From NCBI GenBank assembly GCA_021513695.1, contig CP084166.1, forward strand, positions 1,568,001 to 1,632,000: a DNA stretch of 64,000 bases. Direction: 5' to 3'. Made by a program: the position numbers and the translations under genes. The notes beneath the pieces are model-generated. The model was not told the origin of the DNA. It ran no database searches and saw only the letters and a program-made list of their open reading frames with translations. Shown piece after piece: positions 17,923 through 63,637 of the stretch (position 1 is its first letter; every line of letters begins with the position of its first letter). The DNA comes from Candidatus Heimdallarchaeum aukensis (GTDB lineage Archaea > Asgardarchaeota > Heimdallarchaeia > Heimdallarchaeales > Heimdallarchaeaceae).

Positions 17923-18309
17923 TTATTTCCAAACTTTTAGAAACTCTGGCATTTCTTCGAAGTTTACAATTGGTATTGATACGGGCCATCTAGCATCACT
18001 TACTTCATCAGCGAATTCGAACTCTTCCTTTGGACTTGTTCTATATCTTATAAATGATCCTGCAGGAGGTTCATCATTTTCTATCCAGACCACTATTGGA
18101 AGAGCTCTTAAGTTATAGTATCCTAAGCTAGTGTTGAACATGAAAAAAATATTCCTATTCGCTTCTTTTTCATAAAAATATCCAATATAACCAGTCACTC
18201 TATCTGATAAAGTTGAAGCAATGAGTTTTATTATATCTGATAATCCCTTAAGTTTTATTGACGCAGCTTTTTTTATATTATCTACTATTTCATCCATATT
18301 AACCACCAA
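17923..18309 (-). CDS. Hypothetical protein (128 aa) immediately downstream of atpK
   Basis: Clean ORF 19 nt after the atpK stop on the same strand. No motif recognised. Confidence 0.45.
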   Translation of the reverse strand: MVVNMDEIVDNIKKAASIKLKGLSDIIKLIASTLSDRVTGYIGYFYEKEANRNIFFMFNTSLGYYNLRALPIVVWIENDEPPAGSFIRYRTSPKEEFEFADEVSDARWPVSIPIVNFEEMPEFLKVWK

Positions 18310-18328: not shown

Positions 18329-18634
18329 TTAGAAGATTAATAGAATAGCTACAAGTAGACCATAAATTGCTACTGCTTCAATAAGCACGATGAACAAGAA
18401 GATTTTACCAAAAATCTCTGGTTTTTCAACTAATGCGCCTATACCAGCCGAACCAGCTGAACCCATTCCGAGTGCACTACCGATTCCTGCTAGACCTATT
18501 GCTAGAGCAGCGCCTATAGGTCTCATATCTCCTTCTTCACCTAGAGGAATTTCTGCAGCGAATGTACCTTTTGCGGTTATAATGATAAGCGCAACAATTG
18601 CTAGTAGTCCAATAATCAGATCATTTTTTTTCAT
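18329..18634 (-). CDS. atpK: A/V-type ATPase proteolipid subunit K (c subunit)
   Basis: Gly-rich helix GAALAIGLAGIGSALGMGSAGSAGIG and a second helix with the conserved carboxylate (FIVLIEAVAIYGLL). The track ORF extends to 18730, but the Met at 18634 (MKKNDLIIG...) is the plausible start. Confidence 0.8.
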   Translation of the reverse strand: MKKNDLIIGLLAIVALIIITAKGTFAAEIPLGEEGDMRPIGAALAIGLAGIGSALGMGSAGSAGIGALVEKPEIFGKIFLFIVLIEAVAIYGLLVAILLIF

Positions 18635-18834
18635 AATACGTCCCTTTTTCACGTGTTTAAAATTACAAATCATCGTTTCTTTATTAGTTTTTTGTATTGG
18701 ATACTTTTTAATATTGAATACTTTTTTCAATAAAAAAGTTTTAAGAATAACATATTTTATATTTCATGTATAAGTAAGAAAGCAAACCTATAATAAATGG
18801 GAAAACTTTATGATTATTAAGAAAAGATTCTATC

Positions 18835-19452: not shown

Positions 19453-19456
19453 ATAT

Positions 19457-19462
19457 GAGGTG
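19457..19462 (+). promoter_or_regulatory. Shine-Dalgarno-like GAGGTG before the second ESCRT-III gene
   Basis: GAGGTG lies 5 nt upstream of the ATG at 19468, and only 15 nt separate the two ESCRT-III genes. Confidence 0.45.
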
Positions 19463-19467
19463 TTTAT

Positions 19468-20127
19468 ATGGGTATGAAAAACTGGTTATTTGGAACCAAA
19501 CGCAAGGATGATGCTGAAGCTTTAGCTACACTCAAAGCTCAGATCAATCGATATGAGCACGAGTCCCGCAATTTAGAACGTCAAGCTGATGAACAAAAAT
19601 CTTTAGCTGCTAAGATGTTAAAGTCGGGTAATAAAGCTGGAGCTAAACAAGCTCTTAAGCGTCGAGCTATTTATATGAAACGTTTAAATCAGGTTCAAAA
19701 TATGCTAATGAACCTTCAGAGTCAGATTGATAGTATTCAAACTGCAACCTCTACTGTTGAAACAGTAAAGGCAATGGAGTTAGGTACGAAAGTTGTCAAG
19801 ACGAAGATGCAAGAAGTTGATGTAGAGAAAACTGAACGTGTAATGGATGAAGTTATGAGTCAACGTGATGAAATTGAAATGATGACAGAAGCTTTATCTG
19901 ATACTGCACTAAGTGAGAGCATTTTAGATTACGAAGATGATGTCGCAATTGATGATCAACTTGCTCAATTAGAAGCCGAGATGAATCTTGGTAAAACAGA
20001 AGAATTACCAGATCTTTCAGATCTTCCTTCAACTCCATCAGAAAAACCGACTGAAAAAGAAGAAGATACTTCTGACCTTGAAGCCGAATTAGCTTCTCTT
20101 AAGAAGAAGTTAAGTGATGACAAATAA
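19468..20127 (+). CDS. ESCRT-III, Vps20/32/60 (Snf7/CHMP4)-like protein
   Basis: AKQALKRRAIYMKRLNQVQNMLMNLQSQIDSIQTA aligns by eye with CHMP4 ALQALKRKKRYEKQLAQIDGTLSTIEFQREALENA. The C-terminus is acidic with a terminal amphipathic helix (DLEAELASLKKKL). Confidence 0.85.
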   Translation: MGMKNWLFGTKRKDDAEALATLKAQINRYEHESRNLERQADEQKSLAAKMLKSGNKAGAKQALKRRAIYMKRLNQVQNMLMNLQSQIDSIQTATSTVETVKAMELGTKVVKTKMQEVDVEKTERVMDEVMSQRDEIEMMTEALSDTALSESILDYEDDVAIDDQLAQLEAEMNLGKTEELPDLSDLPSTPSEKPTEKEEDTSDLEAELASLKKKLSDDK

Positions 20128-20254
20128 TAATAATCAAATTCTTTTTTCAATTCTTTTTTTCATCATTTTAGAAACGAACAGTTTTTTAACGATAATGATG
20201 TTACTAGTTTAGTAATTCAATTAATAGGATTATTCAGTTAGAGAGGTTAAAGAA

Positions 20255-21400
20255 TTGAGCGCGCAAGGACTGATTGAACACGCACGTAAATTTGCAAAAA
20301 AAGCTTATGAACTTGATAAGGCAAAACAATACAATGAGGCAATACCACTTTATCTCGACGCTGCAGAAGCTCTAATGAAAGCAATAAAATTTGAAAGAAA
20401 TCCACAAGTGGGAAAGACATTAAAGAAAAAAGCAGAGATGTACATTGAACGAGCAAAAGATCTAAAAGAAATTATTGAGAAAAAAGCTGAAAAGGGGGCA
20501 GAAACAGGGTCAGACGAAGAATCTGATAAATTAGAAGGAGCAATTAGCGATATCATAGTTACAGAAAAGCCATCAGTTACTTTGGATGATATTGCAGGAC
20601 TAGAAGAAGCAAAACGGAATCTTCGAGAAGCAATAGTGTTACCTCTTGTAAGACCAGACTTATTTAGTGGTGCAAGAAGACCATGGAAAGGGATTTTACT
20701 TTTTGGCCCCCCAGGATGTGGAAAAACTCTTTTAGCAAAAGCAACAGCTGCAGAAGTAGAAGCTACGTTTTTTAATGTTAGTGCGTCCGCGGTTATATCC
20801 AAATGGTTAGGAGAATCTGAAAAATTAGTTAATACATTATTTAAAATTGCTCGTGAAAGGCAACCAAGTATAATTTTCATAGATGAAGTAGATGCTCTTA
20901 CCGGAGCACGTGGTGGCGAGCATGATGCTATGCGCAGAGTTAAAACTGAATTATTAACTTCTATGGATGGTTTATCTAGCTCTGCTCAAGATCGTCTTGT
21001 AGTTATTGGGGCTACTAACCTTCCTGAGTCTATTGATGGAGCTTTTCGCCGTCGTTTTGAGCGTCGTATTTACATTAAGCTTCCAGATTTTGAAGCGCGT
21101 AAAGCTATCTTTCAACTAAATGTCAAAGGAGTGGACTTAGCTCCCGATGTTGATTTTGAATCTTTAGCAGAGATTACAGAAGGTTATTCTGGAGCAGATA
21201 TTGCTATGGTTTGTCGCGATGCTATTATGACTCCTATTCGTGAACTTGATTTATCAGGAGACATTCATGACCCCAATATTAAAGCCAGACCAGTTACACA
21301 AAAAGATTTTCTTGAGTCTATTCAGTCAGTTAATCCTTCTGTAAGTGCAGAAGAAATCGAGAAATATGAGAAATGGAATGAAGAATTTGGTTCAGCGTAA
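20255..21400 (+). CDS. vps4: Vps4-like AAA+ ATPase with N-terminal MIT domain
   Basis: MIT-like helices AKKAYELDKAKQYNEAIPLYLDAAEALMKAIKFERNP. Walker A GPPGCGKT and Walker B IIFIDEVD. The C-terminal helix EEIEKYEKWNEEFG matches the Vps4 pattern. TTG start preceded by GAGAGGT. Confidence 0.95.
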   Translation: MSAQGLIEHARKFAKKAYELDKAKQYNEAIPLYLDAAEALMKAIKFERNPQVGKTLKKKAEMYIERAKDLKEIIEKKAEKGAETGSDEESDKLEGAISDIIVTEKPSVTLDDIAGLEEAKRNLREAIVLPLVRPDLFSGARRPWKGILLFGPPGCGKTLLAKATAAEVEATFFNVSASAVISKWLGESEKLVNTLFKIARERQPSIIFIDEVDALTGARGGEHDAMRRVKTELLTSMDGLSSSAQDRLVVIGATNLPESIDGAFRRRFERRIYIKLPDFEARKAIFQLNVKGVDLAPDVDFESLAEITEGYSGADIAMVCRDAIMTPIRELDLSGDIHDPNIKARPVTQKDFLESIQSVNPSVSAEEIEKYEKWNEEFGSA

Positions 21401-21707: not shown

Positions 21708-23161
21708 CTACTGGGGCTGCAACCAATGGCTGAGCCCTTGGCAAACAGTGAAATGAGTGAGACTAAATTTACGACCAGTGAGTAGATCAGTAATAGTTGT
21801 TGCACGGGGGCGGAAAAGAGAACTAAGGAGCAGACGAGCGATATTCATTGCTCCTGTTAGATCAGAGTGGAAGGTGTAATTGCAAGAGGGACAATAAACT
21901 AACCCTCTAACGGGGCGGGTAACTTTTTTTCCGCAACGGGCACAGTGAGATGATGTTCCTCTTTCCTCTATCGTCAGAATTCGGTGAGAGGGAAAACCTC
22001 TAAGTATTAGTGCACGACGGATAAAAGAAAGAACAAGAGCATAGTTCCACTGGTGAAGTTTTCTTCGTGACTTGCGATTAGTTACTCCCTTATTTTTTTC
22101 TCGTCGAATGTATTTAGGATAACCTATAACAACGAAAAGATTATAGATCCGAGCATAAACCTCTATTGTCCACACGATAGCACTTACAAATTGATTGATA
22201 TACGCTCGTCTGACGTTTCTATACCTCCGACGGAGACGTTTGAGAAAACGGTAAACTTGGTGTTTTTTACCCGATTGGTCGTTTAAAGCTGCTTTCCTCT
22301 GAAGACGGGAAAGTTTGAGTTTATATCGATGATTAACTTTATTCCACTGTTTGGTATACTAGAACTTTATTTCTTTACTTGTTACCTTCTTTTTCGGGGT
22401 CAGTAGCACTTCTACCGCAGGAATGTTTATCCCTAGATCTATTCCCAGCACAGCTGGGGGAAGAAAAGAAGAGTCAGAAGAAAGATTATCTCCCTGAAGG
22501 AAAGAAGAAGGAAGAACTTTTGAATGAAAATATATCCACCATTCACGTGTAGAACGTTTGTATCTTATTTCTAAACTTTTTACTCTTTCTTTAATTCTTT
22601 TTGATGAAACTCGCTCATCTCTAAAGGTAACCACAATCGCTGATGAAAACGTGTTTTTCTTTTCCACCTATCTAACGAGTCTCGTATTCCTACCCACCAA
22701 CGAGAAAGAGTGTTATTCTTATCTTTTGGTAGATGGACGAGGATGAACCTTTTTTTATTAATTAATTGTCTTCTTGCTCTCTTTCTTGGAGGACGAGTAT
22801 TGTTAGGTCTATATCCTTGCTCATATAGTTGCACAGCTATATCTCTACATTCTTGAAACTCATCGTGAGAACAATAGGGAAACATTTTCTTCATATCGTG
22901 AGGAACAGTCGTTCTTCTTTCTTCCTCTTTTTTTACTCTCGAGGTCGTTAATGTCAATTCGTCTAATTTTCCTTTATGTACTTTTATTTTCCCTTCTTTT
23001 GCTTTAATACCTATTTTTTTTCTGTTATGGTGTATAATTCTCACATACTTTTCTATTATTCTAGTATCTCTCCCCGTTATTCTCCTTAACTTTTCTTTTT
23101 TTCTCGTCGTCAATACTTCATTCTTCACTCTCACCTTTAACGTTTTGACGACGTCCTCCAT
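21708..23161 (-). pseudogene. tnpB: tnpB pseudogene (frameshift plus premature stop)
   Basis: Three track ORFs (22580-23161, 22359-22667, 21708-22175) together reproduce the 484-aa copy-A protein. There is an indel near 22585-22595 relative to copy A. TGG became TAG at 22359-22361 (KFWYTKQ in A, KF*YTKQ here). Confidence 0.85.
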
Positions 23162-25009: not shown

Positions 25010-26014
25010 ATGTCTAAAGAAGGTAGATATGCGAGACAGACTCTCATACCTGGTTGGAATCAGAAGAAACTCAACAAATCAACAGTTATTATTGTTGGTG
25101 TGGGAGCAATTGGATCATATGTATCAACGATTTTAGCTTCTTCAGGAGTAAAAAATCTCATTCTAATTGATTTTGATACTATTGAAATCTCTAATCTTAA
25201 TCGTCAATTACTATTTCGGGATGGAGATATTGGAAAATCCAAATCTGAAATTGCAGCTATGCGATTATCGGAACTAAATCCAGATATTAACATTACCTTT
25301 CATCATAAGAAGATGCAAGATTTACCTATTTCTATTTACAAAAAAGCAGATGTCATTGTGGCTTGTCTTGATACCTTCATTGGAAGAAGATGGATAAATT
25401 CACTTGCTGTAAAAATAAACAAACCTTTAATTTTAGGTGGAATGTTTGCTTTTCTAGGAGATGTTCAAGTTGTTTTACCAAAAAAAACTGCTTGCTTTGA
25501 TTGTCAACCTTTAGTTGCAGAAAGAGAACTTGCGCAAGCTTGTACTCCATTCGGAGAAGAAAGGAAGAAAAACAGAGAAGAAAAAGAGGATGAAGCGAAA
25601 TTACCATCTGTAGCCACATTGTCTGCGATTATCGGAGGAATTATGGCACAAGAAGCCTTAAAACTTCTTTTAGACATAGGTGAACCAATCAAGAATTATC
25701 TTTTCTATGATGGATTACATAATGCAACAACAATAATTGAACTTGCAAGAAGAAAAAAAGATTGTCCAACTTGTGGAGAACTATATGAGTTGGAACAAGT
25801 CGAATTTGTGGTAAATAAAGATAATACCGTCAAAGAACTATTAATCCAATTAGGTTTACAATTCGGACTTGAGAGCCCAGACATTATGATTAAAGGGAGG
25901 ATACTCCCTCACGATTCAAAAATCCAAGAACTAGGTATAAAAAATAACATGAAGGTTTTTGTAATGGACAAAAATTTAGCTTCACCAATCAAGTTAAAGT
26001 TAAAGATTGAGTGA
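25010..26014 (+). CDS. E1-like ubiquitin-activating enzyme (ThiF/MoeB fold) with C-terminal beta-grasp/UFD-like domain
   Basis: Rossmann motif VGVGAIGSYV, then DFDTIEISNLNRQLLF. Zinc-type cysteine pairs CFDC and CPTC. A charged crossover-loop insert (EERKKNREEKEDEAK) follows ACTPF. The last ~70 aa (VKELLIQLGLQFGL...MKVFVMDK) look like a beta-grasp domain. Confidence 0.85.
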   Translation: MSKEGRYARQTLIPGWNQKKLNKSTVIIVGVGAIGSYVSTILASSGVKNLILIDFDTIEISNLNRQLLFRDGDIGKSKSEIAAMRLSELNPDINITFHHKKMQDLPISIYKKADVIVACLDTFIGRRWINSLAVKINKPLILGGMFAFLGDVQVVLPKKTACFDCQPLVAERELAQACTPFGEERKKNREEKEDEAKLPSVATLSAIIGGIMAQEALKLLLDIGEPIKNYLFYDGLHNATTIIELARRKKDCPTCGELYELEQVEFVVNKDNTVKELLIQLGLQFGLESPDIMIKGRILPHDSKIQELGIKNNMKVFVMDKNLASPIKLKLKIE

Positions 26015-26025
26015 AAAAAGAAAAT

Positions 26026-26751
26026 TTAGGTGTGTGACAGTCCAGGGAAATAATATTTAGTTCCTTCAGCATAGGAACTATCTACTCTTGCTATACCATT
26101 TTCTTCAAAAAATGATAAGCAACGATTAATTCTTTCCTCTGCCCACCCTGTTCTAAGTAATAGATCTTCTTTTGTTACAAATCCTGTTCTTGAAGCAATG
26201 TTTAATATTACATCATGGTCGGGACTGAATTCAACAGGAGCAAATTCTACTAGTTTCACTCCAGATTCTAAAACTTTGAAAGGTGGAATTAATTTTGAAT
26301 TTATGAGTTTCTCTAATGAACGATACAAGTCATCAATTGTAACTAGTTTTCCAGGTCTAGTTTTATTTAATTGGGTAAACAATTCACCTACAGACATTAT
26401 ACCTCCATTTTCTTCTATAAGTTTTTGACCCAAATCCATGATTTCGTTTGCTAAAACATCATAGAAACCTTTTCCTGTTAATCTATCTTTTAGAGTTGGA
26501 GCTTCTTTCCATTCATATCTCCCTATTTCTGTAGGTAAGCCTAGTTCTTCTCGCAGGCCAGCAAGTTTTTCATAATATTCTTTATTTTCAACTATTTTAT
26601 CACCATATTTCTTTTCAAATTTCTTTAGTTGCTTTTTAACTTGTTTAATATTTTCCAACATTTGTTCTAATTCTTTTATCATTAATTCGGCTTCTTTAAC
26701 TTGGAAAGCTGACTTCACTTTTAATTTCTTTTCAATATCTCTTAAGCCCAA
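26026..26751 (-). CDS. EAP30-domain ESCRT-II subunit (Vps22/Vps36-like)
   Basis: By-eye alignment to SNF8/EAP30: FYDVLANEIMDLGQKLIEENGGIMSVGELFTQL vs [33 protein letters not shown], and DHDVILNIASRTGFVTKEDL...W..ER....L..FEENGIARVD vs DHTVVLQLAEKNGYVTVSEI...W..ER....L..LLKEGLAWLD. An N-terminal coiled coil is present. Confidence 0.8.
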   Translation of the reverse strand: MGLRDIEKKLKVKSAFQVKEAELMIKELEQMLENIKQVKKQLKKFEKKYGDKIVENKEYYEKLAGLREELGLPTEIGRYEWKEAPTLKDRLTGKGFYDVLANEIMDLGQKLIEENGGIMSVGELFTQLNKTRPGKLVTIDDLYRSLEKLINSKLIPPFKVLESGVKLVEFAPVEFSPDHDVILNIASRTGFVTKEDLLLRTGWAEERINRCLSFFEENGIARVDSSYAEGTKYYFPGLSHT

Positions 26752-27168: not shown

Positions 27169-28638
27169 CTACATATCTTTTAAAATTCGTCTAAATTCGT
27201 TTAACCATCTTGATGCTTGGAATTCTAGTTTTTCACAATCGTCTTCATTTATTATTTCACTTGGTTTATAATTTGAAAGAATGTCTTTCCAGTTTTTCAT
27301 ATCGCTGAGCATCCAATGATCTTGCGGAATAGATGGAAACGAGTGCAAAACATGAATTAGCTCTTCTACGTCAGCCAACAGCAAATCAGCTCGTGCGACT
27401 GATTTAAGCCTTGTTAGATCAATTAATTCAATTGCAGCTGAAACAAAATCAGCTGTTTTTACAGGCATTTTCTTTAAGGATTCAAATGGTATCATTTCAA
27501 CATCTTTAGTTCCAGTTCCTTCAGCCATTTGTAGCAATCTCATTCCTTTGTCAAATCTATTTAGCAGATTTTCTTGCTCTATAAACGAATCGAGATCAAA
27601 TCCACCTAATTGTTCCAGTTTCATTCTTGTTTTGAAAACTGTTCTTATTAGTGATCTTAACTGCTTTTTATATGCAACTTGCTCAATCTCACCATTTTCA
27701 TACCCTCTCGCTAAATTATCTAATGTCACTATTGCTGCATATAAATCAGCTTCAAAATCTAATCTTTTATCTAAATCACTAGGCATTACTTGTCCTCCAA
27801 CATTTTCTAAATAAGCTAATTTTTTATTTGTCTTATAACTTTCCACTGAATATTTTCTATAAAGTTTCAAGTAATCAACACTTGAAAGATCTCCATCATC
27901 AAATTTCTCATTTAATAGCTCTAATAAGTCATTAGATGCTCTTGAACTTGCTTTTAAATCATCGGTTACAGAAATTGTAAGTTCTTTTAATGAATGTGAA
28001 GGCTCAGCTTTCTTGATTAGAGCAGCTCTTTTTTCCTCAATTTGTTTATTTAGTTCGTTTATCTGCTGCTGATACGCTTCTATCTCTGCTTCAATAGTAC
28101 TTTTTTCTATCGATGTTTGACTCCGTTCATTAAAGGATGGTACACTTTGCTTACGTACAGTGTGACGTGAAACTGTTCTTGGTTTCATCGGTTGAACTAC
28201 AGATCTAGACACACTCCTAGCTGTAGACATATGCTTTGTTCTTAATGGTCTTGCAGGAACATTAGCAAATAATCGCCGAATATCATTTATAACTTGATAA
28301 ATATGATAGCGTGGTTTCCATTGAGCGAGTATTTGCAAACTAAGAAAGTCATTGTCGTCAACATTAGGATGATTTACTTTAGGAGTAATTTCAACTTGAG
28401 GAGGAATTCTTGGGAACTCTGGAGAGATATATATTGTAGCATAAACAGTTATCTTCGTTCCTTGAATTATCCCTACAGGGCCTTTCCACTTTCTTAAATT
28501 GCCTCCTACTGGCTCAAATCCTTCAACATTATTATAAATTAATTGCATCTCATTAGCAAGAATCTGATCTAGAGAAATTTGTCTCACCTTTACTCTTCTA
28601 TTATTGTTATAAACTTCAAAGTTTAAAAAATATTGCAT
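27169..28638 (-). CDS. ESCRT-I-like fusion: UEV/E2-variant domain + coiled-coil stalk + Vps28-like domains
   Basis: Residues ~45-125 have a UBC fold (KWKGPV..GT...V...I....FP..PP.V.....V.HPNV) with Ser100 where E2s carry the catalytic Cys (DFLSLQIL vs GSICLDIL). A coiled coil spans ~170-205. The C-terminal ~200 aa align by eye to Vps28 (DLYAAIVTLDNLARGYENGEI...Y vs ELYSLIITLDHLEKAYLKD.I...Y, plus a C-terminal helical bundle). Confidence 0.75.
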   Translation of the reverse strand: MQYFLNFEVYNNNRRVKVRQISLDQILANEMQLIYNNVEGFEPVGGNLRKWKGPVGIIQGTKITVYATIYISPEFPRIPPQVEITPKVNHPNVDDNDFLSLQILAQWKPRYHIYQVINDIRRLFANVPARPLRTKHMSTARSVSRSVVQPMKPRTVSRHTVRKQSVPSFNERSQTSIEKSTIEAEIEAYQQQINELNKQIEEKRAALIKKAEPSHSLKELTISVTDDLKASSRASNDLLELLNEKFDDGDLSSVDYLKLYRKYSVESYKTNKKLAYLENVGGQVMPSDLDKRLDFEADLYAAIVTLDNLARGYENGEIEQVAYKKQLRSLIRTVFKTRMKLEQLGGFDLDSFIEQENLLNRFDKGMRLLQMAEGTGTKDVEMIPFESLKKMPVKTADFVSAAIELIDLTRLKSVARADLLLADVEELIHVLHSFPSIPQDHWMLSDMKNWKDILSNYKPSEIINEDDCEKLEFQASRWLNEFRRILKDM

Positions 28639-28729: not shown

Positions 28730-29272
28730 TTACTTTCTATTTTTGACTAAAAGTGTAGCTAGTTTCACAAATGCTTCTTGAACATGTTCTCCTGTAAGTG
28801 CACTTGTTTTTATGAAATCCAAACTATTGATTTTGTTTTGTAATGATTTACATTCATCATCTGATACAGCAATTTTATCTTCTAAATCATTTTTATTTCC
28901 AACTAAGATGGTAAGGGTGTTCTTTCCACAGTTTTTAACAAGTTCAGAGTTCCATTTCTCTAGATCAGTTAGTGTTGAATTCCTGGTTAAATCGAAAACC
29001 ATCAGTGCTGCTTTTGCTCCTTTAAAGAAAGTATGTCTTATAAACCTAAATCTATCTTGTCCTGCTAGATCCCAAATTGAAAGAGCTACAACTGTATTGT
29101 CCTCTAATGTAACAAATTTCTCACTCGGTTCCATACCTATTGTCATCAGATAACTTTGTTCAAAACGATTATGAACAAAACGTTGTACAAGAGATGTCTT
29201 TCCTACAGCGGCGGCACCTAATAGAAGTATTTTGAAATTGAAATCAGGACGAATTGAACGCATTATTCTCAA
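28730..29272 (-). CDS. Rab/Ras-like small GTPase
   Basis: G1 GAAAVGKTS, G3 WDLAGQD, G4 GNKND and G5 TSAL. By eye it aligns end to end with Rab-type GTPases. There is no C-terminal Cys prenylation motif. The likely start is the ATG at 29263 (MRSIRPDF...). Confidence 0.9.
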   Translation of the reverse strand: MRIMRSIRPDFNFKILLLGAAAVGKTSLVQRFVHNRFEQSYLMTIGMEPSEKFVTLEDNTVVALSIWDLAGQDRFRFIRHTFFKGAKAALMVFDLTRNSTLTDLEKWNSELVKNCGKNTLTILVGNKNDLEDKIAVSDDECKSLQNKINSLDFIKTSALTGEHVQEAFVKLATLLVKNRK

Positions 29273-33173: not shown

Positions 33174-34628
33174 CTACTGGGGCTGCAACCAATGGCTGAG
33201 CCCTCGGCAAACAGTGAAATGAGTGAGACTGAATTTCTGACCAGTGAGGTAATCAGTAATGGTGTTACATCGAGGACGGAAAAGATATCCAAGGAACTTA
33301 CGAGCGATATTCATTCCCCTTGTTAGATCAGAATGAAAAGTGTAGTTACAGGAAGAACAATGAACTAACCCTCTAACGGGACGGGAAACTTTCCTCCCGC
33401 AACGAGCACAGTGAGAAGATGTCCCTCTTTCCTCTATTGTTAATATTCGGTGAGATTCAAAGCCTCGAAGTATAAGTGCCCGACGGAGAAGAGAGAGAAC
33501 AAGAGAAAAATTCCACTGATGAAGTTTTCTGCGAAACTTACGATTACTTTTTTCTTTTTCTTTTCCTTCTCGAACATGTTTGGGGTAACCTACAACAACG
33601 AAAAGGTCATACACTTGTGCATAACTCTCTATCGTCTGCACAACATCGCTTATAAATTGGTGAATATACGCGCGTTTAACGTTTCTATACCTCCGACGAA
33701 GAAGACCAAGAAAACGGTAAACTTGGTGCTTTTTACCTAACTGGTCGTTTAAAGCTGCTTTCCTCTGAAGACGGGAAAGTTTGAGTTTATATCTATGATT
33801 GATTCTATTCCACTGTTTAGTATACCAGAATTTTATCTCTTTTTTTGTTAACTTCTTTTTAGGAGTCAGTAACACTCCTGCAGCAGGAATGTTTATCCCT
33901 AGATCTATTCCCAGCACAGCTGGGGGAAGAGAAGAAGAATTATCTCCTTGACTTGTGAGATAAAAGGAAGAAGGAGGAAGAACTTTTAATTGGAAATACA
34001 CCCACCATTCACGTGTAGAACGTTTGTATCTTAGTTCTAGACTTTTCACCCTCCCTTTCTTTAACTCTTTCTGGTGAAAATCGCTCATCTCTAAAGGTAA
34101 CCACAACTTCTGATGATAAGGTGTCTTTCTCTTCCAGGTATCTAACGAGTCTCTTATTCCTACCCACCAACGAGTAAGTGTATTATTCTTCTCTTTTGGT
34201 AGATGGACAAGAATGAACCTTTTTCCATTAATTAATTGCCTTCTTGCTCTCTTTATTGGAGGACGAGTAGGACGGGGTCTATACCCTTGTTCATATAATT
34301 GTACAGCTATATCTCTACACTCTTGGAATTCATTGTGAGAACAATAGGGAAACATTTTCTTCAAGTCGTGAGGAACAGTCTTTCTCCTCTCTTCTTCTTT
34401 TACTCTTGAAGTAGTCAGTGTCAACTCGTCTAATTTTCCTCTATGTACTCTTATTTTCCCTTTTTTTGTTCTTATACTTATTTTTCTTCTGTTGTGGTGT
34501 ATAATTCTCACATATTTTTCTATTATTCTCGTGTCTCTCCCCGTTATTCTCCTTAATCTTTCCTTTTTTCTCGTCGTCAATACCTCATTCTTTATTCTCA
34601 CTTTTAATGTTTTGACGACGTCCTCCAT
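33174..34628 (-). CDS. tnpB: TnpB-like RNA-guided endonuclease family protein (OrfB, RuvC + zinc ribbon)
   Basis: 484 aa. RuvC-I is LGIDLGINIP. The zinc ribbon is CARCGRKVSRPVRGLVHCSSCNYTFHSD. RuvC-III is HSDLTRGMNIA. The N-terminal KTLKVRIKN... is typical of TnpB. Confidence 0.9.
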   Translation of the reverse strand: MEDVVKTLKVRIKNEVLTTRKKERLRRITGRDTRIIEKYVRIIHHNRRKISIRTKKGKIRVHRGKLDELTLTTSRVKEEERRKTVPHDLKKMFPYCSHNEFQECRDIAVQLYEQGYRPRPTRPPIKRARRQLINGKRFILVHLPKEKNNTLTRWWVGIRDSLDTWKRKTPYHQKLWLPLEMSDFHQKELKKGRVKSLELRYKRSTREWWVYFQLKVLPPSSFYLTSQGDNSSSLPPAVLGIDLGINIPAAGVLLTPKKKLTKKEIKFWYTKQWNRINHRYKLKLSRLQRKAALNDQLGKKHQVYRFLGLLRRRYRNVKRAYIHQFISDVVQTIESYAQVYDLFVVVGYPKHVREGKEKEKSNRKFRRKLHQWNFSLVLSLLRRALILRGFESHRILTIEERGTSSHCARCGRKVSRPVRGLVHCSSCNYTFHSDLTRGMNIARKFLGYLFRPRCNTITDYLTGQKFSLTHFTVCRGLSHWLQPQ

Positions 34629-39866: not shown

Positions 39867-40247
39867 ATGTCAATAAGTTTACCACCAGAAAAGAAAAAAG
39901 AATTAATTAAAATATTAAAACAAATTTCACAAGGTTGTGAATTGGAAGCTTTAGCAGTTGTAACAGATGAGGGAATTAAAGTAGCTTTTTTTGCCGAGAA
40001 AAGTGCAGACCCTGATTTACTCAGCGCTGTAAGCTCGGCTGTTCTTTCCACCGGAGAGATGGTTACAAAACAGCTTTCTCACGGTTTTTTGGAACAAGTT
40101 TTAATCCGCGGTGCTAAAGGATTTACTATCTTATCTAATTTAGATCACTATCTTTTAATTGGAGCTTCTAAGGATTTACACAGCGTTGGTTTAGCTATAC
40201 AAGTAATAAGAAGGCATAGCCCCACAATTGCAGAATTGTTAAACTAA
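39867..40247 (+). CDS. Roadblock/LC7/MglB-family protein
   Basis: 126 aa. ALAVVTDEGIKVAFF...AVLSTGEMVTKQLSHGFLEQVLIRGAKGFTILSNLDHYLLIGASKD follows the Roadblock/LC7 alpha-beta-alpha pattern. Confidence 0.8.
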   Translation: MSISLPPEKKKELIKILKQISQGCELEALAVVTDEGIKVAFFAEKSADPDLLSAVSSAVLSTGEMVTKQLSHGFLEQVLIRGAKGFTILSNLDHYLLIGASKDLHSVGLAIQVIRRHSPTIAELLN

Positions 40248-40289: not shown

Positions 40290-41291
40290 TTAATAAAAGA
40301 GGAAACTCTTCTCTATTTCCTCTTGGCTAAAGCCAGCATTAATTCCAACAATTATTCTAATAAGATCAGAGATTTCTGCGTATTTCATTTCAAAAAAGGC
40401 AATCAATATTTTAAGATCAGTTGAAGATTTTTGACGAAATATTTTTTTCCATTTTTTGATTTGGAAACGCTCAACAGCAAATTCTATATCATGTAGAGGA
40501 ATATCATCTTTTCCCATGTAGTCAGCGAAGATTCTTTTGTATATTCCAAAATTGTACATGCTTAGGACTTCAGGAATGGAATTTGATTCTAATGCTTTTG
40601 CAATAAATGTTGTTGGTTTAATATAACGATAGGGAGCAATCCCAAGATTAATACATCTACACACCCAAATTATGTTCTTTAAGTTAACGTAGACATCAAA
40701 CTCACGAGAAATTACAGGGAGAATATAATATTCAAATTGATCTATTGCTGCGTCAACTGGTACAAAACGTCCTGTTTTCTGAAATTCAGAATAGCCTTGT
40801 TCTAATAATTGTTTGAAAGTCTGAATTTTTTCTGACTTAATGATATCAGCAATTGATGAGGAGGAAGAAAGAACTTTTTCATAATATTCATAACTGTATC
40901 TTCCAACTGGAGAAATTCTTTCTATTATTTCTTCATGAGGTTGCTTCATAAACAGTCCACGAAGAATATATCGGATATTCTCTGCATGAAATCGTTGGGA
41001 ATGAAGATCAATTATCTTTTTTGCTCTACTTGATCCCTGTTTATAAAAAGTGCTCACAGTTTGAGCAAAATGGTTCTTTAATTGTTTTGCAACTTCTGGC
41101 ATCTCTGTAACAAAATTAATATCTTGAACAATTGGACCATATTGCGTTTGCCGAAAAGCAGCTTGTAGTTCTTTAAGATTAGAAGAGGATAGAAGAAAAT
41201 TTATCTGACTTCGACTAAGTACTTTGCCTATTATTCCATGAGCTCTTCCATATAAATATCCATCTCCTGAGAACATTTCATTCACCAGCAA
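40290..41291 (-). CDS. atpC: A/V-type ATPase subunit C (eukaryotic V0-d / AC39 family)
   Basis: 333 aa helical protein. YLYGRAHGIIGKVLSRSQINFLL at the N-terminus, AENIRYILRG in the middle, and EISDLIRIIVGINAGFSQEEI near the C-terminus fit the triple-repeat AC39 pattern. It overlaps atpI by 14 nt. Confidence 0.75.
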   Translation of the reverse strand: MLVNEMFSGDGYLYGRAHGIIGKVLSRSQINFLLSSSNLKELQAAFRQTQYGPIVQDINFVTEMPEVAKQLKNHFAQTVSTFYKQGSSRAKKIIDLHSQRFHAENIRYILRGLFMKQPHEEIIERISPVGRYSYEYYEKVLSSSSSIADIIKSEKIQTFKQLLEQGYSEFQKTGRFVPVDAAIDQFEYYILPVISREFDVYVNLKNIIWVCRCINLGIAPYRYIKPTTFIAKALESNSIPEVLSMYNFGIYKRIFADYMGKDDIPLHDIEFAVERFQIKKWKKIFRQKSSTDLKILIAFFEMKYAEISDLIRIIVGINAGFSQEEIEKSFLFY

Positions 41292-44200
41292 TAGTTGTGT
41301 ATTGAATAAATTTGGTTTTCTCTAGTAATGGAGTATATTGGACACCTTCCCCTTTGTAGAACTTGGAGAAAAATTCTACCCAATGCAACCTCAGTGTCTG
41401 TAAGAATGAGAACATTCCTTCAATAGGTACAATCACAACAAGTCCCCAAACAATGCCAACAATCCAATAAATCCAAGAGGTAGCTAAAGCAGAGACGTTA
41501 TGGGTATCAACACCAGCTAAAATATATGGAAGACCACTCAAAATTGCATGGACTAGTAACATAGCTAAGATACGGCTAAAGGATAGTGTGTTAGAGAATA
41601 GAGCAATAAGATGATCTATAGCTTCCATAATCCCCTCTGTTCCTTCATGGAGATATTCGAATAGGAAAACTAGAGGAATTGAAACTAAGGCAATAATTGT
41701 AAATATTGTAGAATAGGGTTTTGGAATACTAGGAAGTGCATTTCCACCGATAAGTCGTGAAGTAGCACCAGCACCCATTAAATTATACAATACTGCAAAA
41801 AGTCCTACGTAAAAAATGGAAAGTATAATTGGAGAAATCCATGAAGCTACACCGTGACCGTATTTTTTGTTTTGTATAAATCTTAACCAGATCCCAAGTT
41901 GTATAATTACAAAACCAATAGAAATGGAAAACAATAAGAACAATGGTACTTCTTTTGTAGGCTCAATCAAAGGCAACCATTCAATATGCAAAACGTTTTC
42001 ATAAATATCAGGTAGAAATACTTCATCACCTAGAAGTGCTCCAAATAGGAAACCAAAGATAATTGAAGAAAAACCAGAAAGAGCAAGTAACTCAGAACCT
42101 TTATACAGAAATCCAGACATTGATTCATCAGGTTCAATATTCTTTTTGTTTTTCTTATAAGTTAGAAACAATCCAATCAAGAAGAGAAGTATTCCATGTC
42201 CCACATCAGCGAACATTATACCAAATATCAAGGGAAAAGTAAATTGTATAATTTTGAAGGGGTCTACTTCATGAGTTGAAGGGATACCCATTCCATCAAC
42301 TATTCCTCGAAAAACTTTAGTAACCTTATTCCCATGTTTTGTCATTGAAGGATTCGTTAATGGTACTTTTTGTTTTTCAGACATAGTTATTGGAAAATCC
42401 AATTTTTCGGTTTCTTTCTTTAAGTCTTCAACCCTATCTTTAGGAACCCAACCCCAAATTGTTGTAGTGGTTTCATCAGTTTTACATTTTTCTTCTGTTT
42501 CCAACCTTTTAATTTCTGTTTCTATTAACTCTTCTAGTGCGAAGATTTTGTCTTCTACTTTCTCCCTAATTTCATCCAATTCATGTTCTTTATGTTCTAT
42601 TTCAGTTTGAAGATTCGTGAGCTGACTTTCAATAGATTCTGAAGATATCATGCTATAGTCAATAGATAACAGCTCAAAGGAATATTCTTCTAGAACTTGT
42701 TGTATAGACTTCTTATAATCTATTAGAGACAATATGTAGACAAAGACTGTGTCACTTTTTTCTGGTTGCTCAACCTCAATGAAAATTAATTGCCCATCAG
42801 AAACTTCATTTAGGAAAAACTTTACAGCCTTAACATTCTTTTTTGGGATATTCCCCAAAAAGGTACAAGTTTCAAAATCTGGATCATCCAAGTATGGTTT
42901 AACATCAGAGCTTAAATAGGAATAAATAGGGATATATGCTTCTAATTCTGTTTTCTTCGCTTTTAATTCTTTAAGTTCGGAACTAAGATTTTCTATTTTT
43001 TCTCCATAATCTGCAATAAATTGCTCAACAAAAGATATAGCTTCATCATAGTTATCTTTTACAGCAATCTTAGAATCAGATATTGCTGGAGGAATAGATA
43101 ATCCAAGGGCTTGTTTGTATCTGCTAATTTTGGAAGATAGTAAAGTAAAATTCTGTCTTTTTTGTTTTATGTCGTTTAAAATATCTTCTGACTGTCTTCC
43201 TATCTTTTCTTGATGAAGGATACCAGTGTTATGAATAAAGGAGATTAACTTACGTGTGTGCTCCTTTGGGACTTCCATTTTAACAAACTCTACATCCTTC
43301 GGAAATAAAGCTCCTCCCTTACTGTCACCTAAATGATGATAAGGAGGAATTTCTTTTTCAATTGTTTTTTCTTCTTTCAAAGTCAAAGAACCACGATCCT
43401 TGGAAATTTTTTTAGATTTTTTATATTTCAGAGGAACATCCCTCAATTGAGTGAGTTTAACAGGAAAAGGAAGCTCTTTGAGTTCCTTTTCGAGATTAAG
43501 ATAATCATTAGGTTTAATCCAACCCCAAAGGGTGAAATTAGTTTGAGTTGTTCGACCCTGTTCTAGAATATCAAATAACTCAAGCATGAGATTAATAAAA
43601 GTGAGAAAATGCAAAAGAGTTTCACGATGTTCATCACGCAATTCTGAAATTTGAGATAAAATTTCATCGTGCTTTTCGTGCAGAAAATCATGTACATTAG
43701 CTACTGTAAGCTTGCTAGTTTCTTCATCACTGAACATATCGGCAAAAACAGACAGTTCAAAATCTATTGAAGAAAAATAGAAATTTTCTAGAATAGTCAA
43801 AACTTCATCTTGATATTCCTGGGGGGTGAGAATAAAAACCAAACGAAAATCAGGGTTAGATGATTCAATACTCCAGAAGTAATAAAGACCTTTAGTTATC
43901 TCATCAATATAAAAGGAGATAACTTTCTTATACGAATGATGGATTTCTCCAACGATAGAAAAGGTGGAAGGCCCAGAAGAAAGTAAATCTAAAGGGATAT
44001 CACCAGTCTCAAACTTATGCCGAAAATAATGAAGTTTGTCGGCAATTAGATGCTTCTTTGTTAAAGAATGATTTTCTTCAAAAAGAGAGATAAGAGAAGT
44101 TTCATGTGTATCTAAGAAAGATTTTAGTTCGGAAAGAAATCTAGAAGCATCAAAAACATCAGAGTAGTTTTTTTCTGAATATGAATAAACATCAGAAAGA

Positions 44201-44406
44201 TCTAGACCTAGTTCTTGTGATATGGTAGTAAAACGCTTTAACAAATCAGAAAAAAGCTGGCGATTATCTTCAATTTTAGCCAATTCTGAAGGAGATTGAG
44301 TATCAATTTGAACAAAATCAAAACAATCTAAATAATGTAATTTGGATACAAGAGGAAGGGAGTCGGAGGGTGACACCTGAACCTTTGAAAGTACTCTTTT
44401 TGCCAT
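41278..44406 (-). CDS. atpI: A/V-type ATPase subunit I (a-subunit), unusually long, with duplicated N-terminal cytoplasmic domain
   Basis: The C-terminal ~330 aa form the membrane domain (EVDPFKIIQFTFPLIFGIMFADVGHG ... SFSRILAMLLVHA ... LRLHWVEFFSKFY). Two successive N-terminal-domain-like units each end in a GW-x-P/K motif (FTLWGWIKPNDY..., TTIWGWVPKDRV...). Confidence 0.85.
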   Translation of the reverse strand: MAKRVLSKVQVSPSDSLPLVSKLHYLDCFDFVQIDTQSPSELAKIEDNRQLFSDLLKRFTTISQELGLDLSDVYSYSEKNYSDVFDASRFLSELKSFLDTHETSLISLFEENHSLTKKHLIADKLHYFRHKFETGDIPLDLLSSGPSTFSIVGEIHHSYKKVISFYIDEITKGLYYFWSIESSNPDFRLVFILTPQEYQDEVLTILENFYFSSIDFELSVFADMFSDEETSKLTVANVHDFLHEKHDEILSQISELRDEHRETLLHFLTFINLMLELFDILEQGRTTQTNFTLWGWIKPNDYLNLEKELKELPFPVKLTQLRDVPLKYKKSKKISKDRGSLTLKEEKTIEKEIPPYHHLGDSKGGALFPKDVEFVKMEVPKEHTRKLISFIHNTGILHQEKIGRQSEDILNDIKQKRQNFTLLSSKISRYKQALGLSIPPAISDSKIAVKDNYDEAISFVEQFIADYGEKIENLSSELKELKAKKTELEAYIPIYSYLSSDVKPYLDDPDFETCTFLGNIPKKNVKAVKFFLNEVSDGQLIFIEVEQPEKSDTVFVYILSLIDYKKSIQQVLEEYSFELLSIDYSMISSESIESQLTNLQTEIEHKEHELDEIREKVEDKIFALEELIETEIKRLETEEKCKTDETTTTIWGWVPKDRVEDLKKETEKLDFPITMSEKQKVPLTNPSMTKHGNKVTKVFRGIVDGMGIPSTHEVDPFKIIQFTFPLIFGIMFADVGHGILLFLIGLFLTYKKNKKNIEPDESMSGFLYKGSELLALSGFSSIIFGFLFGALLGDEVFLPDIYENVLHIEWLPLIEPTKEVPLFLLFSISIGFVIIQLGIWLRFIQNKKYGHGVASWISPIILSIFYVGLFAVLYNLMGAGATSRLIGGNALPSIPKPYSTIFTIIALVSIPLVFLFEYLHEGTEGIMEAIDHLIALFSNTLSFSRILAMLLVHAILSGLPYILAGVDTHNVSALATSWIYWIVGIVWGLVVIVPIEGMFSFLQTLRLHWVEFFSKFYKGEGVQYTPLLEKTKFIQYTTIAGE

Positions 44407-62172: not shown

Positions 62173-63637
62173 TAATCAACTTGATTTTTGTACAAAAATA
62201 AATTTTGTGCAAGAATCTTGCTCTCGGAAAGCACTAAAAGAAACTATCACGAAGGAGAGTTTAGATTAGGCGAACCGGTCATAGAGCCAGAGGAGAGAGT
62301 TGATAAACCCTCGACCACGGAAACTGGAAAAAAGAACTTTTTCCGCTCACGTGGGACAGGAAAATAAGAAAAAAAGGAAGAAGAGAGAGGGAGAGGAAGA
62401 GAACCAAAAAAGAGAAGAGAAAGGTTGCGAGAGGCGTTGCGGTCAGAGTGAACTTCAAAACCACAAGAAACGCAACGAAAAAGGTCACGAGTGACACGGG
62501 AGGAAGGAGAAACGTGACCGCAACGAGAGCAACGTTGACTGGTATAATGAGGGGGGACAGGAAGAACAGGAATATGCTTTTCTTCAGCAAGAGAGGTCAA
62601 GAAAGAGAGGAAAAAGCGATAAGACCAGCGGTTGAGAGAGCGACGAATACGTTCTCTTCCTCTAAAATTCTTTTTAGTCCATTTTTTTCTTATTTTACTA
62701 ATTTCTTCAATTACTATCGCAGAGCGTGTAACTACTGCTAAATCTACAATCTCGTGAGCTATTTGCTCACATCGGGTTTTGTTATAATTTTTTTCTTTAT
62801 TTTTCAATCTTTTTAACGCACGCCGTGCTTTTTCACTTCCTTTATCAGCATACGATTGTAGCTTTCTTCTTCTTTCATTAAACTTATGTTGTTTCCAGGC
62901 AAGATCTTTTCCGAGGTAACGTTCAATTAGAGTAAAAGAGGGATGATTAAGTGTTATTGCGGCAGCTATCTTTCTACCTACGTCTACTCCTATCGTTCCT
63001 TCTACTTGTTGAGGAGGAAAAAGGTTAAGTTCTTTACGTAAAATTATGTGCTCTACCCACTTTCTTTCCCGTTTAAAGACTTTACAACTATGCTCTTTCC
63101 ATCCTTCTCTGCGGTATGCTTCTACTCTTCTCCATCCTCCATCTAGTTTGATAGGTATAGCTATCCTTTCTTTCATCGGAGAAATAGCTAAAACAGGGTT
63201 CCCTCTCTCTGTTTCTTTTATTCCTCCACTCCTGGGAAAGTTGAACTCCAACGGTAAATTATCGAACTTTTTCACTTTCCTTGCCGCATAAACTCTTCTC
63301 TGTACCGCTTCTTGCACTTGACTGTGTAACTTCACATATTTGAACCTCTTATATACTAAATGATGGAACTCTTTTCCTGATTTCGCTTTTTCCTTGAACA
63401 CTATTATTTTATTTGCCATCTCTGTCGCTTTTTTCTGTGCTCTCTGCATGTATGCTCTTTTTCTTCTACTCGGGAGAATATTCACTTTTACTGTTTTTTC
63501 TTTCCACTTCCTTTTCTTTCCTTTTCTTCTCCCTTTCGTTTTCATTCCTTCTTCTTACTTTTTTTTCCTATATAAACCCCTCTCCTCTCTCTTTCCTTTT
63601 CTTTTCTTTCCTCTTTTTTTACAAAAAACTTGTTCAT
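62171..63637 (-). mobile_element. Third TnpB-only element (copy C, different subfamily); boundaries approximate
   Basis: The tnpB ORF is flanked by a pyrimidine-rich leader region and by ends resembling those of copies A/B (..TTTACAAAAAACTTGTTCAT at 63618-63637; ATTAATCAACTTGATTTTTGTA from 62171). The alignment of the ends needs indels, so the limits are uncertain. Confidence 0.5.
62247..63545 (-). CDS. tnpB: TnpB-like protein (OrfB, RuvC + zinc ribbon), second subfamily
   Basis: RuvC-I is IGVDVGRKIAAA. NRWSYRFFLSFLTSLAEEKHIPVLPVPPHYTSQRCSRCGH...CVSCGFEVHSDRNASRNL carries the zinc ribbon and RuvC-III. The last ~55 aa are low-complexity and may be read-through of the RNA-coding 3' region. Confidence 0.85.
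   Translation of the reverse strand: MKTKGRRKGKKRKWKEKTVKVNILPSRRKRAYMQRAQKKATEMANKIIVFKEKAKSGKEFHHLVYKRFKYVKLHSQVQEAVQRRVYAARKVKKFDNLPLEFNFPRSGGIKETERGNPVLAISPMKERIAIPIKLDGGWRRVEAYRREGWKEHSCKVFKRERKWVEHIILRKELNLFPPQQVEGTIGVDVGRKIAAAITLNHPSFTLIERYLGKDLAWKQHKFNERRRKLQSYADKGSEKARRALKRLKNKEKNYNKTRCEQIAHEIVDLAVVTRSAIVIEEISKIRKKWTKKNFRGRERIRRSLNRWSYRFFLSFLTSLAEEKHIPVLPVPPHYTSQRCSRCGHVSPSSRVTRDLFRCVSCGFEVHSDRNASRNLSLLFFGSLPLPLSSSFFSYFPVPRERKKFFFPVSVVEGLSTLSSGSMTGSPNLNSPS

Follow-up and report, generated by a model that had tools for sequence, protein, structure and literature searches.

Rotary ATPases differ chiefly in the number of their peripheral stalks, with one in the F-type, two in the archaeal and bacterial A/V-type and three in the eukaryotic V-type, where the third is anchored by subunit C. 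A gene of Candidatus Heimdallarchaeum aukensis raises the question of what a second cytoplasmic arm does in the stator subunit I of such an enzyme. The gene lies in a stretch of 64,000 nucleotides of contig CP084166.1 (positions 1,568,001 to 1,632,000 of the forward strand), hereafter the window, from whose first letter all coordinates are counted. The initial annotation, made from the letters alone, had read the product as a subunit I with a tandemly duplicated N-terminal domain.

Architecture of the gene and its neighborhood

The features to which the analysis refers are as follows.

41278..44406, minus strand: the entire gene, coding for a V/A-ATPase subunit I (a) of 1042 aa that starts with a pair of arm domains (open reading frame with ATG start; PF01496, E = 5e-48)
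43432..44406, minus strand: unit 1, the extra and more diverged arm copy, residues 1–325 (aNT fold with proximal lobe, coiled-coil hairpin and distal lobe)
43300..43431, minus strand: linker, residues 326–369, Lys/Glu-rich and predicted to be disordered (from pLDDT, alignment and lengths)
42337..43299, minus strand: unit 2, the canonical arm, joined directly to the membrane domain, residues 370–690 (matched on its own by NCBIfam NF004428, E = 3e-21)
41278..42336, minus strand: membrane domain, residues 691–1042 plus the stop codon (HEVDPF, FGIMFADVGHG, LSFSRILAMLLVHA and LRLHWVEFFSKFY conserved)
40290..41276, minus strand: subunit C of the A-type (equal to d of the V-type; AC39 family), co-oriented and downstream (PF01992, E = 1.8e-32)
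18329..18634, minus strand: proteolipid c (K) subunit with one hairpin, start codon uncertain (PF00137, E = 1.6e-19)

The strings quoted in the initial annotation (RVLSKVQVSP, TNFTLWGWIKPNDYLNLEKELKELPFPVKL, VEFVKMEVPKEH, TTTIWGWVPKDRVEDLKKETEKLDFPITMS and HEVDPF...FGIMFADVGHG) are all present where it had placed them, and its statement that the membrane domain is entered only from unit 2 matches the layout that we found. The protein scores 164 bits against the Pfam family PF01496 (cut-off, 30.7; E = 5e-48), and the NCBIfam subunit I models match it with E = 1e-68, covering only residues ~369–1034 of 1042; the equivalog cut-offs of NCBIfam, which are very high, are not reached. Judged by these profiles, the double-arm protein is a member of the subunit I family that belongs to no specific equivalog. 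The proteins of Thermus thermophilus (5GAR, 6R0W), Meiothermus ruber (I-NT, 3RRK) and Enterococcus hirae (NtpI, 8WCI) fall into the same family (PF01496 and NCBIfam PRK05771), and the prokaryotic subunits share with the Heimdallarchaeum protein the membrane motifs and an adjacent gene for the d homologue. Whereas prokaryotic subunit I has one arm and ~650–700 aa, the Heimdallarchaeum protein has two tandem arms, a ~45-residue linker and 1042 aa. The comparison of lengths suggested in the initial annotation gives the same picture, with 1042–1071 aa for double-arm proteins against 655–703 aa for related single-arm subunits I. The tandem second arm is the sole departure from the architecture of the family.

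The C-terminal multi-helix membrane domain is present with its arginine-bearing helices (SxxR(I/L)xAL and LRLHWVEF type). Its motifs are invariant in four orthologues, including LSFSRILAMLLVHA and LRLHWVEFFSKFY, whose arginines we take to be the catalytic arginines of subunit a. The closest solved sequence relatives of unit 2 plus membrane domain are the eukaryotic subunits a (Vph1p/Stv1p, a1–a4). Specifically, Stv1 (6o7u, E = 1.6e-25), human a4 and a1 are the closest matches of the membrane domain in the PDB sequence search, with E. hirae NtpI (8e-16) and T. thermophilus I (5e-9) ranking behind them, and residues 927–1028 align to residues 725–829 of human a4.

The likely ATG of the downstream subunit C gene (d homologue) lies 2 bases past the stop codon of subunit I, and this gene directly follows I in all loci examined. 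This A-type subunit C is distinct from the eukaryotic stator subunit C, Vma5p. Genes for subunits A, B, D, E, F and H were found neither in the 64-kb window nor in the 10-kb flanks of the 23 loci described below; unlike in the prokaryotic systems compared, the Heimdallarchaeum I gene does not share one operon with the remaining enzyme genes. The c subunit gene is located 23 kb from I, divergent from ESCRT-III genes, and the same layout recurs in locus L006 and many other loci; its product has a single hairpin, where eukaryotes have a double hairpin in subunit c. In the closest single-arm relative (P0017/P0029, locus L005), the I-C pair likewise lies apart from the A1 genes, and this gene order indicates that the separation of I-C from the other ATPase genes is older than the duplication.

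Homology and predicted fold of the two arms

Residues 1–335 and 365–700 align collinearly (8–326 of the former against 12–319 of the latter) in a single BLASTP comparison, with 23% identity (73/324), 73.9 bits and E = 2e-19, so the self-alignment of the two halves by which the duplication was to be checked is both significant and collinear. The profile cross-scores are much stronger than this pairwise similarity: the unit 1 HMM gives 116–154 bits on unit 2 sequences, and the unit 2 HMM gives 125–148 bits on unit 1 sequences. The initial annotation had further expected two hits in a domain scan, which held for NCBIfam and failed for Pfam. In NCBIfam, unit 1 alone matches NF004430 collinearly (E = 8e-7, residues 80–311 on model positions 78–297), and six of seven orthologous unit 1 sequences match the N-region of subunit I (best E = 2e-9). 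In Pfam, unit 1 of the host and its orthologues (7 sequences, E up to 10) matches no V-ATPase family. Because unit 1 is invisible to Pfam, a two-match test there would fail misleadingly, and in Pfam-based pipelines the protein passes for an ordinary '116 kDa subunit', with ~370 residues overlooked. The PDB sequence search with unit 1 profiles returned nothing relevant and no subunit C chain.

The AF2 model of unit 1 alone, built from a 24-row alignment, reaches pLDDT 87 and pTM 0.71. As predicted by AlphaFold, unit 1 adopts a confident subunit a/I arm fold with an order of secondary-structure elements identical to that of unit 2, in line with the features that the initial annotation had described as common to both. 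When the unit 1 model was searched with Foldseek, the top 25 matches were all subunit a/I, the closest being the N-terminal domains of these subunits; the model also matches subunit C (1U7L) significantly (E = 1.2e-7). The full-length AF2 model (pLDDT 54, pTM 0.32) is too poor for the relative placement of the arms, and its pLDDT falls to 24–34 for residues 322–371 in the linker region. The alignment of eight proteins shows that the linker length is kept at 44–49 residues, and the gap between the unit 1 and unit 2 HMM matches amounts to 45–50 residues across the 23 loci. The linker ends are conserved as VP(L/F)xY(K/R)K and GG.LFP, and the short 'VP' segment that follows the arm was duplicated along with the ~320-residue arm. 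The linker is basic and flexible, and its ~45 residues would span an estimated ~150 Å when fully extended, a reach that we estimate would let unit 1 sit at one end of unit 2 or at the other.

Among 26 sequences, 43 columns of unit 1 and 48 of unit 2 are at least 90% conserved; only 14 of these are common, and therefore each arm copy has its own signature. Specifically, unit 1 carries a conserved motif of its own, [VI]D[PST]Q[SRN]P[SKA]E[QL]A at residues 34–43, which in the form VDPQSPKEQA constitutes an invariant surface motif of its proximal lobe. From the collinear alignment, the HMM cross-scores and the fold together, we regard it as virtually certain that the cytoplasmic arm domain of subunit I was duplicated in tandem, as the initial annotation had proposed.

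Distribution, age and selection of the duplication

The census of double-arm proteins combined an exhaustive homologue search with a genome scan. The scan found unit 1, unit 2 and the membrane domain together in one ORF in 23 species-level genomes from independent assemblies, all Heimdallarchaeota-labelled or Asgard MAGs with conserved synteny; further metagenome contigs carry the same one-ORF architecture, and among the database entries there are also fragments with frameshifts (P0010, P0014, P0016). No free-standing unit-1-like protein appeared in the exhaustive search, where short matches were contig-end or frameshift fragments. The census was changed neither by a word-indexed search with a 50-sequence arm alignment, which yielded 3 fragments only, nor by a membrane-domain search, whose matches were for the most part short fragments, with no named Heimdallarchaeaceae paralogue among them. 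Our search of the literature on the ATPase subunit I of Asgard or Heimdall archaea, on three peripheral stalks and on Heimdallarchaeum brought up no account of the double-arm architecture.

In a neighbor-joining tree on Poisson distances, a crude method chosen with Kimura-corrected distances saturated and with few other Heimdallarchaeia sampled, unit 1 is monophyletic in 300 of 300 bootstraps and unit 2 in 299 of 300, and the two are sisters in 262 of 300 (87%). Tree and distribution point to one duplication, old and conserved, at the base of a Heimdallarchaeia clade that comprises the Heimdallarchaeaceae and relatives, and the double arm is confined to this clade. Two other origins of the architecture were considered. 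Fusion with an unrelated upstream gene is rejected on the tree, which puts unit 1 sister to unit 2. Misassembly is contradicted by the same ORF in 23 independent genomes and by the divergence of the copies, since a repeat or collapse of reads is ruled out at only 23% identity.

The membrane domain has a dN/dS of 0.07, against 0.17 in unit 1 and 0.22 in unit 2, and the two arms have diverged in parallel, their pairwise divergences in 26 hosts being correlated with r = 0.96 and a slope of 1.06. These rates indicate that both arms have been kept under purifying selection since the duplication. By the distances, unit 1 is the faster-diverging copy and unit 2 is nearer to the arms of single-arm relatives, which score 152, 122 and 105 bits with the unit 2 HMM versus 118, 74 and 54 bits with the unit 1 HMM. 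Unit 2 is thus the conservative copy, attached to the proton-channel domain.

Possible roles and significance of the extra arm

In Thermus, whose stator is a1E2G2, EG stalks are docked by both lobes of an arm with this fold (PMC7367684). The eukaryotic V-ATPase has three stalks, and the collar at their ends is made up of aNT, C and H (PMC4985227). Eukaryotic subunit a contributes a single aNT and the separate subunits C and H the remainder, whereas the Heimdallarchaeum protein itself carries two arms. In the reading that we prefer, unit 2 would do the canonical job, lying parallel to the membrane and holding one E-H (EG-type) peripheral stalk on the proximal and one on the distal lobe, while unit 1 would act as a further stator arm and widen the collar that surrounds the central stalk. 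With as many as two additional docking lobes from unit 1, the enzyme could brace the A3B3 head at a third, normally free position. Since each arm normally docks two stalks, the extra arm probably enlarges the collar and may anchor a third peripheral stalk. Two arms would offer four lobes for three stalks, as the eukaryotic collar does with aNT and C, and for this reason unit 1 would be the functional counterpart of eukaryotic subunit C, built into subunit I. The initial annotation's proposal that the collar and the stalk-binding part of the stator would be roughly doubled is, given the two docking lobes of an arm in Thermus, a reasonable one. Taken as a whole, with duplication and stalk or collar role combined, we give this explanation an even chance of being right.

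The faster divergence of unit 1 and its new invariant motif would, on sequence grounds, fit a new partner as well as a stalk. Unit 1 could accordingly be a docking or regulatory platform outside the collar that anchors no stalk and instead receives non-ATPase partners, such as Roadblock/LC7 proteins with small GTPases, the cytoskeleton, the ESCRT machinery or particular lipids. The distance of unit 1 from single-arm relatives, greater than that of unit 2, and the privacy of VDPQSPKEQA to unit 1 agree with such a platform, and the eukaryotic aNT is called 'a regulatory hub targeted by multiple signals' (PMC10313074). In most of the 23 loci the I-C pair has a Roadblock/LC7 gene at most a few kb away, and genes for actin, the c subunit and ESCRT-III/Vps4 lie within ~10 kb in many; this neighborhood is, however, synteny among fairly close relatives and no proof of functional linkage. 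Moreover, the complete two-lobe arm fold seems from the models to have been kept beyond the needs of a simple adaptor, and we consider the platform unlikely.

Rather more doubtful is a role of unit 1 as an intramolecular regulator, which would bind subunit C (the d homologue), the rotor or unit 2, and would lock the free membrane sector or control reversible attachment of A1. Such a regulator would elaborate the arm-d auto-inhibition of the Thermus and yeast Vo; in Vo isolated from Thermus, rotation is blocked by the arm, which bends onto subunit d (PMC7367684). The d-homologue gene is translationally coupled to I, and the location of the I, C/d and c genes apart from the A1 genes, in the clade and in the closest single-arm relative, would suit a separate assembly of the sectors. 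A single arm nevertheless suffices for inhibition in other organisms, and the separation of I-C, seen already in L005, predates the duplication.

The likeness to subunit C invites the bolder proposal that the Heimdallarchaeaceae enzyme is three-stalked and that its fused arm is the invention that became eukaryotic subunit C after gene fission; if true, the gene would be a surviving intermediate between the two-stalk archaeal A-ATPase and the three-stalk eukaryotic V-ATPase. Subunit C and aNT have a common fold and no common sequence (PMC3899036). The model of unit 1 likewise suggests a general dumbbell shape like that of subunit C (Vma5p, 1U7L), in which a coiled coil joins two alpha/beta lobes, and subunit C is an additional arm beside aNT, the role that we propose by analogy for unit 1. 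However, unit 1 forms one ORF with subunit I in every case whereas subunit C is a free soluble V1 polypeptide, and by sequence unit 1 matches neither the subunit C family of Pfam nor any other family there. Subunit C was left out of the tree because no sequence similarity remains. The sisterhood of units 1 and 2 within the clade speaks for a lineage-specific duplication, so that unit 1 looks like an independent, parallel invention rather than an ancestor of C, and we hold the ancestral proposal to be improbable.

Less probable still is that the double-arm protein serves as the stator of a second, specialized rotary ATPase or as a bridge of two complexes, an ordinary single-arm I being encoded elsewhere. 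Some Asgard MAGs are reported with two ATPase types (PMC7997004), and the isolation of the I-C pair from all A1 genes would suit a second enzyme; the closest single-arm relative (P0017/P0029) has the same isolated pair, however, and the isolation is therefore a lineage trait and no mark of a paralogue. None of our searches, whose scope stopped short of whole genomes, returned a Heimdallarchaeaceae single-arm subunit I, and the single c-subunit gene seen moves with the same neighborhood. That unit 1 is a decaying, functionless remnant or the feature an assembly or gene-calling artefact, as its absence from Pfam and the frameshifted entries P0010, P0014 and P0016 could suggest, is hardly credible in view of a dN/dS of 0.17, the 43 columns conserved at 90% or more in 26 sequences, an intact frame in 23 species, the confident fold and, against a repeat-collapse artefact, the 23% identity between the copies.

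For annotation, the gene is a warning that Pfam-based labels overlook the extra arm of subunit I. Closed Heimdallarchaeum genomes exist, and the double-arm protein is therefore a defined target for structural biology. A lineage near the eukaryotic stem has duplicated the arm, with both copies under selection in at least 23 species, and it offers a testable model of collar growth by aNT duplication, whether or not this duplication is ancestral to subunit C.

Two arm domains in one subunit I

The subunit I gene and its downstream neighbor form an I-C pair:

41278–44406, minus strand: V/A-ATPase subunit I ORF, 1042 aa, ATG start (PF01496, E 5e-48)
Directly downstream of subunit I, co-oriented on the minus strand: archaeal subunit C (AC39, E 2e-32), homologous to subunit d; its probable ATG lies 2 bases past the subunit I stop codon

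The subunit I start codon is correct, since the N-terminus MAK(R/V)(V/I)LSK is kept across orthologues. In the whole protein, the Pfam and NCBIfam subunit I models reach only from residue ~369 on, and therefore ~370 N-terminal residues are unexplained by ordinary annotation. The initial annotation read two consecutive units of ~330 residues as copies of the cytoplasmic arm: unit 1 in this stretch, and unit 2, which alone runs on into the membrane domain. The two halves indeed align end to end (8–326 versus 12–319) with 23% identity, 74 bits and E 2e-19. An HMM of unit 1 from 8 orthologues scores 116–154 bits on unit 2 sequences, and the corresponding unit 2 HMM (8 orthologues) 125–148 bits on unit 1 sequences. 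The two domain-scan matches anticipated for the N-terminal region were recovered with NCBIfam, to whose subunit I models unit 1 alone gives a collinear N-terminal match (E 8e-7), as do six of seven orthologous unit 1 sequences (best E 2e-9); the Pfam scan gave no V-ATPase family match in unit 1 of the window protein or of the 7 orthologues.

AlphaFold's model of the full-length protein is of poor overall quality (pLDDT 54), with residues 322–371 disordered. Despite this, strands and helices follow the same order in both units. Modelled alone from a 24-row alignment, unit 1 scores pLDDT 87 and pTM 0.71, and its top 25 Foldseek matches are all subunit a/I (E 1e-11 to 1e-7, query TM 0.36–0.60). 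Unit 1 forms a second, complete arm domain. Separately, residues 197–251 of unit 1 (window ~43654–43818) weakly resemble the replication factor A C-terminal domain (Pfam E 0.03; TIGR00617 E 7e-4); this similarity is most likely due to chance, because it is present in only one of 7 orthologues.

Conservation differs between the copies: it reaches 90% or more in 43 columns of unit 1 and in 48 of unit 2, and the only 14 common to both include the TxWGW motif. Judged from these columns, each arm copy has its own conserved signature. Specifically, the proximal lobe of unit 1 carries the invariant motif [VI]D[PST]Q[SRN]P[SKA]E[QL]A. The Lys/Glu-rich linker between the arms keeps to 44–49 residues in length, with conserved ends and a poorly conserved middle.

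Distribution and history of the duplication

A repeat misassembly is ruled out as the source of the two arms, because the copies share just 23% identity. Orthologues of 1042–1043 aa occur in other Heimdallarchaeaceae MAGs (98, 62 and 55% identity) at loci sharing the gene order actin, I, C, Roadblock, ProRS, Tmk. When 1.84 billion cluster representatives were searched exhaustively by HMMER, the unit 1 profile matched just 17 proteins at E <= 1e-3, comprising double-arm proteins (1051–1067 aa), their fragments and a few single-arm subunits I. Scanning one genome per GTDB species gave 23 loci, all from MAGs labelled Heimdallarchaeota or from Asgard MAGs, in which a single ORF of 1043–1071 aa encodes both units and the membrane domain wherever the contig permits. 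No free-standing unit-1-like protein was found among the HMMER matches or these loci. The suggested length comparison separates the two forms, at 655–703 aa for single-arm and 1042–1071 aa for double-arm proteins.

We built a neighbour-joining tree of 64 arm domains (Poisson distances, 314 columns, 300 bootstraps), whose single-arm relatives included P0017 from a lineage with Mb-sized contigs, the Baldrarchaeia sequence P0022 and P0023 from Methanohalarchaeum. The unit 1 clade was monophyletic in 300/300 and the unit 2 clade in 299/300 replicates; the two were sisters in 262/300, with the sampled single-arm relatives outside, which indicates a single duplication at the base of the double-arm clade. 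Its exact node is provisional, because the tree method is crude and other Heimdallarchaeia are thinly sampled. Pairwise distances in units 1 and 2 across 26 hosts are tightly correlated (r = 0.96, slope 1.06), pointing to co-divergence of the copies at nearly equal rates. By HMM scores and tree distances, single-arm relatives consistently lie nearer unit 2 than unit 1, which makes unit 2 the conservative and unit 1 the derived copy.

The window derives from a Heimdallarchaeum, being collinear with the closed Ca. Heimdallarchaeum endolithica PR6 genome at 92–94% nucleotide identity, and dN/dS between them is 0.17 in unit 1, 0.26 in the linker, 0.22 in unit 2 and 0.07 in the membrane domain. These analyses establish the duplication, fold, conservation and selection of the arms. 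Along the gene (window 41278–44406 versus 10001–13126 of L007, the Ca. H. endolithica locus), divergence is uneven: nucleotide differences are 5–7% at codons ~50–250 and 800–950 and 1.3–2.7% at codons ~270–780, with dS of 0.15 in the more divergent codons versus 0.04–0.05. Recombination between species or synonymous-site constraint may account for this.

Genomic setting

Besides lokiactin-type actin, the window contains ESCRT-I/II/III, Vps4, Roadblock and small GTPase genes. The following features are relevant to the ATPase:

17923–18309, minus strand: conserved ORF of 124–128 aa adjoining the c gene, as in many loci (10386–10760, minus strand, in locus L006)
18329–18730, minus strand: proteolipid c (K), one hairpin (PF00137, E 1.6e-19)
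18835–21400, plus strand: two ESCRT-III (Snf7) genes and Vps4, divergent from the c gene
39867–40247, plus strand: Roadblock/LC7 (PF03259, E 1.7e-7), convergent with the I-C pair

The lone c gene divergent from Snf7, Snf7 and Vps4 recurs in L006 (10796–13464) and many of L008–L029. Many of the 23 loci share, within ~10–13 kb, the layout [Vps4, Snf7, Snf7] [c, 124–128-aa ORF] ... Roadblock ... [I, C] actin, so that the genes of the membrane sector are interspersed with 'eukaryotic signature' genes, apart from all A1 genes. The remaining ATPase genes were found neither in the 64-kb window nor in the flanks of the 23 loci. The 124–128-aa ORF, ~50% identical to the window copy across loci and matching no Pfam family, could be an unrecognised ATPase-associated protein. 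In most of the 23 loci a Roadblock gene is no more than a few kb away from I-C; because eukaryotic Ragulator contacts the V-ATPase, this is suggestive, but it amounts to synteny alone. At L005 (10001–13090), on a 2.85-Mb ENA contig that encodes the closest single-arm relative, P0029, no other ATPase genes lie near the I and AC39 pair. Repeated SocA_Panacea-domain genes flank this pair. I-C therefore separated from the rest of the operon before the arm was duplicated.

The window also has apparent TnpB/IS200-IS605-type transposon ORFs, recognised by eye from zinc-ribbon C-termini, at 33174–34628, 21708–23161 and 62247–63545 (all minus strand): the full-length one has 484 aa, another copy, split in two ORFs, shares nearly the same N-terminus (MEDVVKTLKVR...), and a third, different one has 432 aa. 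Genes at 27169–28638, 26026–26751 and 28730–29272 (minus strand) and 25010–26014 (plus strand) include an ESCRT-I-like fusion (UEV/UBC, Vps23 core, Vps28) adjoining an EAP30/Vps36-family protein; a putative small GTPase and E1-like ubiquitin-activating enzyme were assigned there by eye.

Relation to the eukaryotic collar

Sequence and membrane domain place the double-arm protein in the subunit I/a family, from which it departs in a single defining respect, how many arms it has. Among solved structures, eukaryotic a subunits are its best sequence matches (E 1.6e-25), ahead of the Enterococcus (E 8e-16) and Thermus (E 5e-9) subunits. The Thermus stator has the composition a1E2G2 (PMC7367684), and the three EG stalks of the eukaryotic V-ATPase end in a collar of aNT (the N-terminal arm of subunit a), C and H (PMC4985227). 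The double-arm protein does not belong to the eukaryotic subunit C family: that family has no sequence match to unit 1, eukaryotic subunit C is free whereas unit 1 is fused to subunit I, and the modelled unit 1 appears closer to aNT than to subunit C. The tree likewise favours a lineage-specific duplication over ancestry of subunit C.

As to position and binding partners, we infer that unit 1 would work like eukaryotic subunit C without being subunit C. Three rivals survive because the other ATPase genes lie outside the window and the examined flanks. Unit 1 might instead be a hub for non-ATPase partners, which we consider unlikely; that it locks subunit d or the rotor from within the enzyme is more doubtful still. 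Least probable, and scarcely to be expected, is that the double-arm protein is the stator of a second enzyme.

Our literature search found no description of a double-arm subunit I, and nothing combining Asgard with three peripheral stalks; the Heimdallarchaeum circularised-genome paper does not discuss the ATPase, and an ATP synthase evolution study was limited in scope to the catalytic and non-catalytic head subunits. The tandem duplication of the A/V-ATPase stator arm in this Asgard lineage is real, old and clade-wide. The double arm is likely to surprise rotary-ATPase specialists, and with it the origin of the eukaryotic collar becomes open to experiment.
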